NCBI RefSeq assembly: GCF_017348835.2
Contig: NZ_CP071375.1
Strand: one strand, 5' to 3'
Length of the DNA stretch: 64,000 bases
Source of the DNA: Escherichia coli
GTDB lineage: Bacteria; Pseudomonadota; Gammaproteobacteria; Enterobacterales; Enterobacteriaceae
Under the pieces are notes generated by a model. The model did no database searches and was not told the origin of the DNA. It saw only the letters and a program-made list of their open reading frames with translations. Within the stretch, counting starts at the first letter, position 1. Each line of letters opens with the position of its first letter. Positions 25,548-55,988 of the stretch are shown piece by piece. The position numbers and the translations under genes were made by a program.

Positions 25548-25648
25548 GCCTGATGCGCTACGCTTATCAGGCCTACGCAGTACCTGCAATATATTGAATC
25601 TGCAGGACTTTGTAGGCCGGATAAGGCGTTAACGCCGCATCAGGCATT
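25548..25648. repeat. REP/BIME cluster between ybiT and ybiU
   Basis: cctgatgcgctacgcttatcaggcctac and gtaggccggataaggcgttaacgccgcatcaggc REP units. Confidence 0.65.
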
Positions 25649-46567: not shown

Positions 46568-46605
46568 AAGGGGGAGAAAGCGTCTCCCCCTTCATGTTTA
46601 AGTTT
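46568..46605 (+). terminator. Rho-independent terminator after bssR
   Basis: gggggagaaagcgtctccccc hairpin followed by T-rich tract. Confidence 0.6.
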
Positions 46606-46672: not shown

Positions 46673-47788
46673 ATGCATCGACAATCCTTTTTCCTTGTGC
46701 CCCTTATTTGTCTTTCTTCCGCTCTCTGGGCGGCTCCTGCAACGGTAAATGTCGAAGTACTGCAAGACAAACTCGACCATCCCTGGGCACTGGCCTTTTT
46801 ACCCGATAATCACGGTATGTTAATCACTCTGCGCGGCGGCGAGTTGCGTCACTGGCAAGCAGGAAAAGGATTATCTGCGCCGCTTTCCGGAGTTCCGGAC
46901 GTTTGGGCGCACGGGCAGGGCGGCCTGCTGGACGTGGTTTTAGCGCCTGATTTTGCTCAGTCTCGCCGCATCTGGTTAAGTTATTCCGAAGTTGGCGATG
47001 ATGGCAAAGCCGGAACTGCTGTGGGTTATGGCCGCTTAAGTGATGATCTCTCAAAAGTGACCGACTTCCGCACCGTCTTTCGCCAGATGCCAAAACTGTC
47101 TACCGGCAACCATTTTGGCGGGCGGCTGGTATTCGACGGTAAAGGTTATCTTTTTGTTGCTCTGGGCGAAAACAATCAGCGCTCGACGGCGCAGGATCTG
47201 GATAAATTACAGGGCAAACTGGTGCGTCTGACCGACCTGGGCGAAATCCCGGATGATAATCCTTTTATAAAGGAATCCGGTGTGCGCGCCGAGATCTGGT
47301 CTTATGGCATTCGTAATCCGCAAGGAATGGCGATGAATCCGTGGAGTAATGCACTGTGGCTGAATGAACATGGCCCGCGCGGTGGTGATGAAATTAATAT
47401 CCCGCAAAAAGGCAAAAACTACGGCTGGCCGCTGGCAACCTGGGGAATCAACTATTCAGGCTTTAAGATACCGGAAGCGAAAGGGGAGATCGTCGCGGGG
47501 ACCGAGCAACCTGTTTTTTACTGGAAAGATTCGCCCGCCGTGAGCGGCATGGCCTTCTATAACAGCGATAAATTCCCCCGGTGGCAGCAAAAATTATTTA
47601 TTGGCGCGCTGAAAGATAAAGATGTCATTGTGATGAGCGTCAACGGCGACAAAGTGACAGAAGATGGCCGTATTTTAACGGACAGAGGGCAGCGAATTCG
47701 TGATGTTCGCACCGGACCCGACGGTTATTTATACGTTCTCACCGACGAGTCCAGTGGGGAATTACTTAAAGTTAGCCCACGCAATTAG
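46673..47788 (+). CDS. yliI: Soluble aldose sugar dehydrogenase YliI (PQQ-dependent beta-propeller)
   Basis: 371-aa ORF with signal peptide. Confidence 0.9.
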
Positions 47789-48411
47789 CTAACGGGAATC
47801 ATCACCACTTTGCGCACTGCGGGGCGTTCAGTGAGTTGCTGATACCAGCGTTGCAGATTTGGACGCGGTGTCCAGGTCAGGCCAACGTTAAACAAATTGT
47901 AGATGAACGGTGCGATAGCGATATCGCCCACACCAAACTCGTCGCCAGAGAACCATTTTACTTTTGCCAGTTCCGCATCGAGCAGGGCAAACAGGGCGTC
48001 GCACTCTTTGCAACTGGCATCAATGGCGGCCTGATCGCGCTCTTCGGGTGGTGTTCTGACTAATCCCATCAGGATCCCGCGATGAGCATTACTGAGTGTC
48101 TGGTTTGCCCAGTCCATCCATTTTTCCGCTTCCGCACGACGTGCCGGTGAGTCGATCCACAGACGTTTTTGCCCGTACTGTGCCGCCAGATAGCGGACAA
48201 TGGCGTTTGATTCCCAAAGAATGAGATCACTTTCGTCGTCACGCAACAACGGCACCAGCCCGTTAGGGTTCATCGCCAGAAAATCAGCATCGTGATTTAT
48301 CCCAAACTCACGGCCCGCGAGAATTTGCTCATAAGGTAGTTCCAGTTCTTCGAGCGTCAGCAATACTTTTTTTACGTTAGTTGAATTATTCCGACCCCAC
48401 AGCGTAATCAT
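47785..48411 (-). CDS. gstB: Glutathione S-transferase GstB
   Basis: ORF 47785..48417 trimmed to [10 protein letters not shown] start (208 aa). Confidence 0.88.
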
Positions 48412-48658
48412 ACTCACCCCTTTTCCGACAGGCAGCCACAGGCTGAACAGGACTCCGATGGTGAAGTAAAGTTAACTTTTAAGCAACAGCTGGCAAAAAA
48501 ATGACACCAGGAGCAGCGAAGCGGCAGGATATTGCATAAACTTTAAAAACTTTACCAACTTACGGTTTCTTTAAGTTTGTGTGTGCGTTATTAATCACCG
48601 AACTTATCATACGGCGATATAACGTATTTTTTTTTGAATGGATACTCGGGTGGCATTT

Positions 48659-49861
48659 ATGACGCAATACTCCTCTCTCCTTCGTGGTCTTGCAGCGGGT
48701 TCTGCATTTTTATTCCTTTTTGCCCCAACGGCATTCGCGGCGGAACAAACCGTTGAAGCGCCGAGCGTGGATGCGCGTGCATGGATTTTAATGGATTACG
48801 CCAGCGGTAAAGTGCTGGCAGAAGGCAATGCGGATGAGAAACTGGATCCCGCGAGCCTGACTAAAATCATGACCAGCTATGTGGTTGGGCAGGCGCTTAA
48901 GGCCGATAAGATTAAACTCACCGATATGGTGACGGTCGGTAAAGATGCCTGGGCGACGGGAAATCCGGCACTGCGTGGTTCATCAGTAATGTTCCTCAAA
49001 CCGGGCGATCAGGTTTCGGTGGCAGACTTGAACAAAGGTGTGATTATCCAGTCCGGTAATGACGCCTGTATTGCGCTGGCCGATTACGTTGCCGGGAGCC
49101 AGGAGTCATTTATTGGTTTGATGAATGGTTATGCCAAAAAACTGGGTCTGACCAACACTACCTTCCAGACGGTGCACGGTCTGGATGCGCCGGGGCAGTT
49201 CAGTACCGCGCGCGATATGGCATTGCTGGGCAAAGCATTGATCCACGATGTGCCGGAAGAGTACGCCATTCATAAAGAGAAAGAGTTCACCTTCAACAAA
49301 ATTCGTCAGCCTAACCGTAACCGTCTGCTGTGGAGCAGTAATCTGAATGTTGATGGCATGAAGACAGGAACCACGGCAGGCGCGGGATATAATCTGGTTG
49401 CTTCGGCTACCCAGGGCGATATGCGTTTAATCTCCGTAGTGCTGGGGGCGAAAACTGACCGTATCCGTTTTAATGAGTCTGAGAAATTATTGACCTGGGG
49501 TTTCCGCTTCTTTGAAACCGTGACGCCAATTAAACCTGATGCCACCTTTGTGACTCAGCGCGTCTGGTTTGGTGATAAGAGCGAAGTGAATCTCGGGGCA
49601 GGCGAAGCGGGATCAGTGACCATACCGCGTGGGCAGCTGAAAAACCTGAAGGCGAGCTACACGTTAACGGAACCGCAGCTTACCGCACCGCTGAAAAAAG
49701 GTCAGGTTGTCGGCACCATTGATTTCCAGCTTAACGGTAAATCCATTGAGCAGCGTCCGCTGATCGTGATGGAAAATGTGGAGGAGGGCGGATTCTTTGG
49801 TCGGATGTGGGATTTCGTGATGATGAAATTCCATCAGTGGTTCGGCAGCTGGTTCTCTTAA
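48659..49861 (+). CDS. dacC: D-alanyl-D-alanine carboxypeptidase DacC (PBP6)
   Basis: ORF 48638..49861 trimmed to [14 protein letters not shown] start (400 aa); SxxK active site (SLTK). Confidence 0.9.
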
Positions 49862-55890: not shown

Positions 55891-55907
55891 TAGATAAATT
55901 TTAGGCA

Positions 55908-55988
55908 ACAAAAAACCCACCAACCTTGAACCGAAATGGCGGGGTTGATGGGCTCCACAAAATGGGGACATCAAAGAAAAGCAGTGGC
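55908..55988 (-). ncRNA. rybB: Small RNA RybB (sigma-E-dependent, Hfq-binding)
   Basis: Minus strand reads gccactgcttttctttgatgtccccattttgtggagcccatcaaccccgccatttcggttcaaggttggtgggtttttt, matching RybB from memory, including terminator hairpin and U-tail. Confidence 0.9.

Follow-up and report, generated by a model that had tools for sequence, protein, structure and literature searches.

Where can the transcripts of two convergent genes end when no DNA lies between them, and does the one transcript disturb the other? Escherichia coli yliI and gstB, which lie on opposite strands, tail to tail, both in the list of open reading frames and in the RefSeq annotation, raise this question. We analysed the pair in a stretch of 64,000 nucleotides of E. 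coli DNA (hereafter the window, to which all positions refer unless stated otherwise). The two genes and their junction are:

46673..47788, + strand: yliI coding sequence, PQQ-dependent aldose sugar dehydrogenase, 371 aa (ORF list, RefSeq, PDB 2G8S)
47785..48411, - strand: gstB coding sequence, glutathione S-transferase, 208 aa from the RefSeq ATG (ORF list, RefSeq, PDB 4KH7)
47785..47788, unstranded: 4-bp overlap of the two stop codons, TTAG, one of the four permitted tetramers (direct reading)

The shared stop codons and the spacing of the pair

Read directly, TTAG at window positions 47785-47788 holds the yliI stop (TAG at 47786-47788, + strand) together with the complement of the gstB stop (TAA on the - strand, the complement of TTA at 47785-47787), and exactly 4 bp are common to the two coding sequences. 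The initial annotation had described such a 4-bp overlap of stop codons, and the sequence, the reading frames and the RefSeq annotation of both K-12 and strain PE164 agree with it. In MG1655, RefSeq places yliI at 878742..879857 and gstB at 879854..880480, which is the identical overlap, and the 4-bp overlap is annotated in PE164 (100% identical) as well. Between 47200 and about 48634 the two sequences are colinear, with point differences only, and a window coordinate equals the MG1655 coordinate minus 832069. Of 5426 complete E. coli genomes, 5424 were matched by a 1.9-kb query that spanned the junction; the listed records annotate yliI and gstB there, and the 60-nt junction was invariant in 5230 of the 5424.

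The overlap would disappear if the end of yliI or gstB had been mis-called and the true genes did not overlap. The probability of such an annotation artefact is practically nil, no evidence having been found in its support. Stop codons, unlike start codons, are unambiguous, and both reading frames in the ORF list are unbroken up to their stops. Crystal structures cover the C-termini of both proteins: PDB 2G8S matches YliI residues 21-370 of 371 (E=4e-242), which backs its C-terminus, and PDB 4KH7, a Salmonella GstB homologue of equal length, aligns end to end with GstB. The orthologues of both genes stop at equivalent positions in 59 species. A change in the tetranucleotide itself bears on the same point. 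In nine complete genomes of an O121 Shiga-toxin lineage (e.g. L084, NZ_CP022407.1), at least four of which carry O121 or O121:H19 in their name, TGAG replaces TTAG (window position 47786). This single T-to-G change abolishes both stops and lengthens both proteins, YliI to 389 aa and GstB to 228 aa, as expected with two real stops; gstB in these genomes is a pseudogene according to RefSeq. The artefact is already refuted by this evidence. The proviso of the initial annotation, that corrected gene ends could remove the overlap, does not apply, since both ends are well supported by structures and orthologues, and the overlap stands.

The genetic code forbids convergent stop overlaps of 1, 2 or 3 bp, so that 4 bp is the minimum, and it allows a 4-bp convergent overlap only as TTAA, TTAG, CTAA or CTAG. 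Lillo and Krakauer (2007; PMC2174442) give the identical four tetramers, find that the length distribution of convergent overlaps jumps at length 4, count 58 convergent overlaps in E. coli and already ask where terminators sit in such pairs. The yliI/gstB junction is like these minimal prokaryotic overlaps in its opposite strands, its length of exactly 4 bp and its permitted tetramer, and its orientation, tetramer and genuine gene ends together place it in the class. It is a plain member without any difference, and the spread of spacings across the family, given below, is the sole addition. Of the three frames in which the + strand can be read into the end of gstB, two reach a stop within 8 nt. 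Among the 13 convergent protein-gene junctions of the K-12 stretch equivalent to the window, two are 4-bp overlaps and the remaining ones have spacers of 29-240 bp. The yliI/gstB overlap is an ordinary minimal tail-to-tail case that was already known. It carries little weight in itself, since it is annotated, catalogued and common, and the way the genetic code is built accounts for it. Our own contribution is small and consists of the near-zero spacing seen throughout the family, the position of the published gstB 3' end next to a strand-specific stem within yliI that shows constraint at synonymous sites, and the loss of both stops in the O121 lineage.

The second 4-bp convergent overlap of the window, TTAA at 11188-11191, joins rlmF (+) and ybiO (-), a pair that is also found in a published excludon list (PMC12288877). 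A GC-rich inverted repeat, CCCCCGGC...GCCGGGGG, at 11202-11229 lies 11 nt past the rlmF stop, within the last ybiO codons. As a hairpin it was no more stable than shuffled versions of its GC-rich sequence, and it was rejected.

A scan for GstB with one genome per species yielded 80 loci, and a yliI orthologue was convergent to gstB in 59 of them. The spacing between the two stops was distributed as follows:

-4 bp: 6 species (Escherichia species, S. enterica arizonae, C. koseri and one further Enterobacteriaceae)
0 bp: 21 species (Enterobacter, Lelliottia, Trabulsiella and others)
1-5 bp: 21 species
8-20 bp: 6 species
65-68 bp: 3 species (Citrobacter, with an intergenic inverted repeat)
>1 kb: 2 species (other genes inserted)

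In 50 of the 59 species the spacer is between -4 and +9 bp, and we therefore regard tight packing as ancestral and -4 as one of its variants. The YliI tail past 'KVSP' differs in length and sequence among the orthologues while the GstB end is fixed, and it is this variable tail that makes the spacing vary among species.

Several loci of the scan depart from the common arrangement. In three Citrobacter strains, NCU1 (L013), R56 (L015) and Awk4 (L022), the 65-68 bp spacer (about 3628-3695) holds the inverted repeat GGGTTAGTCTGTGAGCCACAGGCTAACCC, possibly a hairpin element that was inserted there, or else a genuine terminator between the genes. In C. amalonaticus ku-bf3 (L011) and Superficieibacter electus (L053), 1.3 kb and 2.5 kb of extra genes split the pair, and the two inserts begin with similar ORFs. 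No C-terminal match to yliI was found in the Escherichia sp. MOD1-EC7003 locus (L005), yet about 20 nt that match the yliI 3' end (TTGCGTGGACTAAC, about 2840-2865) still adjoin the gstB stop; the sequence suggests that yliI was deleted or replaced there and that the junction was spared. Halomonas/Vreelandella loci (L061, L065, L069, L073-L075, L077 and L080) encode GstB homologues at about 70% identity with no adjoining yliI, a high identity for a group as distant as the Halomonadaceae. The gstB-yliI locus of an assembly labelled 'Chryseobacterium sp. 18061' (L071) is Enterobacteriaceae-like, and this assembly may be mislabelled or contaminated.

The ends of the two transcripts

Because no spacer separates the genes, the gstB and yliI transcripts must each end within the other gene. 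A terminator scan returned no terminator-like motif on either strand from 47440 to 48690, folds of both strands gave no hairpin followed by a U run at the junction, and no Rfam family reached its gathering score there, the only nearby match being at chance level (E=0.86). The initial annotation had claimed that the junction leaves no room for an intergenic terminator, with which the empty scan and folds accord. It had also claimed that transcripts end within the opposing gene, and for gstB this is confirmed by a published 3' end 78 nt inside yliI. The features that bear on the two transcript ends are:

48449 (MG1655 880518), - strand: published gstB transcription start, 38 nt upstream of the ATG (SMRT-Cappable-seq, PMC6131387)
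47710..47756, - strand: stem-loop in the gstB 3' UTR, within yliI codons, with 11+4 pairs and a 15-nt loop
47707 (MG1655 879776), - strand: published gstB 3' end, 3 nt beyond the stem and 78 nt beyond the gstB stop codon (PMC6131387)
47600..47699, - strand: C-rich, G-poor RNA, candidate Rho loading (rut) region; GC skew of the + strand +0.29
47337 (MG1655 879406), - strand: published Rho termination region in antisense to yliI, 448 nt beyond the end of gstB (PMC7815308)
47856..47878, + strand: candidate stem-loop inside gstB, 69-91 nt past the yliI stop (dG -16.1, z -3.1)

In the SMRT-Cappable-seq data (PMC6131387, Supplementary Data 1), the gstB unit has its transcription start at MG1655 position 880518 and its termination site, labelled 'novelTTS', at 879776. 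Of the 37 reads from the gstB start, 18 end at 879776, and 15 continue at least 50 bp past it, with a median extension of 80 bp. The curated E. coli Term-seq list of Adams et al. contains no peak at the gstB 3' end for this region, so that this end rests on one long-read data set of 37 reads. The TERMITe supplements held no further 3'-end data for gstB or yliI, and a rifampicin-decay data set gave only a non-significant entry for gstB. The Rho region reported by Adams et al. (PMC7815308, Supplementary file 2) is bicyclomycin-sensitive, with a Rho score of 3.76 and a significance of 1.4e-6 at 879406, and sits about 370 nt beyond the published gstB 3' end; its position is imprecise, because it was derived from 800-nt windows with low read counts (86/16 vs 190/133).

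The stem-loop that precedes the published gstB 3' end by 3 nt has an energy of -25.9 kcal/mol in the window and -26.6 in K-12, the window having C instead of T at 47713. The K-12 stem has a z of -4.5, and none of 200 shuffles folded as well. Among the 55-nt windows of both strands over the whole 64 kb, the one with the stem is in the top 0.27%. The RNA of the + strand from the same DNA folds more weakly (-21.8, z -1.7), since several pairs of the - strand stem are G-U. The bases that immediately follow the stem are CGAACAUCAC, and a U-tract is thus missing.

Dar and Sorek (2018; PMC6061677) described Rho-dependent 3' ends as precise and placed just past stable stem-loops without a U-tract, with an enrichment of C over G after the end, and found some of them inside downstream coding regions. 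The gstB 3' end is like these protected ends in that it is precise and follows a stable stem, has no U-tract, is followed by an excess of C over G, lies in the coding sequence of a neighbour and has a bicyclomycin-sensitive region downstream of it. It differs in that its stem is part of a convergent gene, falls among the last 26 codons of that gene and shows constraint at synonymous sites. By this analogy, the gstB 3' end agrees with the Rho-dependent type of end that a stem protects, with protection from exonucleases being putative.

For yliI, neither the Term-seq list of Adams et al. nor the SMRT-Cappable-seq data contain a mapped 3' end, and the latter have no yliI or bssR unit. The + strand RNA past yliI turns C-rich only from about 48100 onward. 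We infer, with little support, that yliI transcripts end inside gstB as those of gstB do in yliI. The candidate stem-loop at 47856-47878 was considered as a protective stem for yliI; it folds well, yet its codons show no synonymous constraint, and it was not adopted.

On the other side of yliI, some 100 nt upstream of the gene, the terminator scan flagged the inverted repeat GGGGGAGAAAGCGTCTCCCCC (46570-46590), which lies between bssR and yliI, in both orientations, with T-rich tails on either side; this hairpin is truly intergenic and looks bidirectional. Three small RNAs elsewhere in the window scored above the Rfam gathering score:

55907-55985, - strand: RybB sRNA, present in the K-12 annotation of the stretch
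4083-4153, - strand: naRNA4 (CssrE), absent from the listed K-12 features
25569-25611, - strand: ES036 (CssrF), absent from the listed K-12 features

Codon choice in the stem

We recoded the YliI peptide of the stem region synonymously 2000 times with the codon usage of the window. On the - strand, none of the 2000 recodings matched the native stability (native -25.8; recoded -10.9 ± 3.4, best -23.3), and on the + strand 6.2% of the 2000 folded as well as the native sequence. The orthologues were then clustered on the rest of yliI, with the stem excluded, into a group of Escherichia, Citrobacter and Salmonella (n=22) and a second group (n=35). In the former, the normalised synonymous codon entropy was 0.36 for the 11 testable arm codons vs 0.66 for the 162 remaining conserved codons (p=5e-4, one-sided Mann-Whitney, in a test that rests on 11 codons). 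When the arm codon pattern was slid over 350 codons of yliI, the real site gave the second lowest value of 256 placements, and the lowest was the stem site shifted by one codon. No arm constraint was seen in the second group, of Enterobacter, Klebsiella and others (0.72 vs 0.63).

Covariation in the E. coli-type stem was weak, with 77% of the cells paired and 11 cells changed on both sides, and in the counts for the E. coli-type and the Enterobacter-type stems most pairs were invariant or one-sided and the controls were modestly exceeded. For this reason we relied on the recoding and synonymous-diversity tests instead. In the comparison of hairpin strength across species, which are not independent, the median, once corrected for the taking of a minimum, was at the modest 10th percentile of the region minima. 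Because of the weak covariation and the modest hairpin percentiles, we grade selection as probable and not as proven: the stem is probably kept by selection on synonymous sites and not forced by the YliI peptide. In these comparisons, the stem is strand-specific and is the most synonymously constrained spot of yliI in the Escherichia/Citrobacter/Salmonella group, which is new.

Many members of the second group have a different 9-bp GC-rich stem, CGGACGGGC...GCCCGUCCG, which is present in Enterobacter, Lelliottia and Leclercia (L030-L062, e.g. L032:2354-2386), where the spacer is 0 bp. It begins 6-10 nt past the gstB stop, within the last 14 yliI codons, is followed by UUUCAUC or UCUCGUC, and has one arm in common with the E. 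coli-type stem. Since these genomes lack the E. coli-type stem, that element is not universal.

It is possible, if somewhat doubtful, that the stem in the last 26 yliI codons is a selected, strand-specific element of the gstB 3' end, and that the near-zero spacing has been kept by swapping hairpins embedded in the coding sequence. The same tentative reading would assign a type A hairpin to Escherichia, Citrobacter and Salmonella and a type B hairpin, directly past the gstB stop and with one arm in common, to Enterobacter, Lelliottia and Leclercia.

On the gstB side of the junction, the last 13 gstB codons (47788-47826) had a synonymous diversity of 0.38 vs about 0.57 gene-wide in the Escherichia/Citrobacter/Salmonella group, a value based on 9 codons.

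Explanations for the arrangement

We consider it likely that the junction is an ordinary minimal overlap, that gstB ends within yliI by means of Rho and the stem, and that the overlap of sense and antisense RNA is a by-product. The YliI frame would run on through its variable tail as far as the complement of the gstB TAA, which with one more base (TTA+G) supplies a TAG. The RNA polymerase that transcribes gstB enters yliI in antisense; about half of the full-length RNAs end there, 78 nt beyond the gstB stop codon, and the others continue. From the published observations on gstB, namely the position of the 3' end, the read-through and the effect of bicyclomycin, we infer two further steps. Beyond the gstB stop, where the antisense RNA is C-rich and untranslated, Rho would load on it and cause diffuse termination over some hundreds of bases, and 3'-to-5' exonucleases would trim the RNA back to the U-tract-less stem at 47710-47756, which would set the stable gstB 3' end. 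Transcripts of yliI may end by an analogous route, with Rho acting on the RNA antisense to gstB. Rho and the stem would keep the sense/antisense overlap short, with no dedicated regulatory device.

In terms of sequence, trimming to the stem and direct termination at the stem would look the same. The stem at 47710-47756 could itself be the terminator, of an intrinsic kind without a U-tract, or a pause site that positions collisions of polymerases, and not a stop for exonucleases. The distance of 3 nt between the stem and the gstB 3' end would suit such a role, and the Enterobacter-type GC-rich stem past the gstB stop, with UUUCAUC or UCUCGUC after it, comes nearer to an intrinsic terminator. 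However, the E. coli stem has CGAACAUCAC after it in place of a U run, its 15-nt loop and internal bulge are unlike those of canonical terminators, 15 of the 37 reads pass it, and a bicyclomycin-sensitive region lies downstream. We regard termination by the stem as unlikely for these reasons and since stems without a U-tract at 3' ends are a hallmark of Rho-dependent transcripts (PMC6061677). A bidirectional intrinsic terminator at the junction was considered as well and rejected, there being no spacer, no hairpin with a U run and no hit in the terminator scan from 47440 to 48690. Ju et al. reportedly found, in 2019, bidirectional intrinsic terminators between convergent genes. The yliI/gstB pair is like such terminators (Ju et al.; Wang et al., 10.1101/2022.10.23.513370) in its very short stopping space and in having a stem-loop of the nascent RNA near the boundary, but it has neither an intergenic hairpin nor flanking A or U tracts, and the E. 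coli stem sits within one of the genes, at a depth of 30-75 nt, and is markedly stabler on one strand.

A by-product of tail-to-tail packing is to be weighed against a functional convergent excludon, in which transcription of one gene lowers the other by collision of RNA polymerases or by cleavage of the duplex by RNase III. ExcludonFinder, applied to MG1655 (PMC12288877, Table 1), names yliI-gstB as one of 165 convergent excludons. The criterion was an overlap of RNA-seq coverage, and the listed pairs were found in no fewer than 50% of 58 E. coli samples. This membership speaks for an excludon, as do the lower co-expression of excludon pairs as a class in single cells and the conservation of tight packing across the family. 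However, the pair satisfies the coverage criterion trivially, because its coding sequences overlap. Although listed by overlapping coverage like other convergent excludons, it differs in that its transcript overlap is unavoidable and not informative, and mutually exclusive expression, the defining property of the class, is putative here. Capture of dsRNA with p19 gave no validation for convergent excludons (PMC12288877). Half of the gstB transcripts go just 78 nt into the 1116-nt yliI, and Rho would stop the rest. Transcripts of yliI were undetected in the long-read data set, and collisions would therefore be rare in those conditions. We know of no functional link between the YliI and GstB enzymes. 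Antisense interference between yliI and gstB, which the initial annotation had raised, is possible and unsupported, and we consider a functional excludon to be quite unlikely.

An ordinary overlap with gstB ending in yliI through Rho and the stem, which we favour, makes the pair a clean teaching case for the transcript ends of convergent genes without a spacer. The T-to-G change of the O121 lineage illustrates the cost of shared stop codons, two stops being lost at once. If the stem is confirmed, it would be one more documented case of selection on synonymous sites for an RNA element that serves a gene on the opposite strand. If the tentative reading of the stem and the hairpin swap is true, the last yliI codons would double as protein code and RNA signal, and the swap would be a worked example of how transcript ends are formed in convergent genes that have no spacer.
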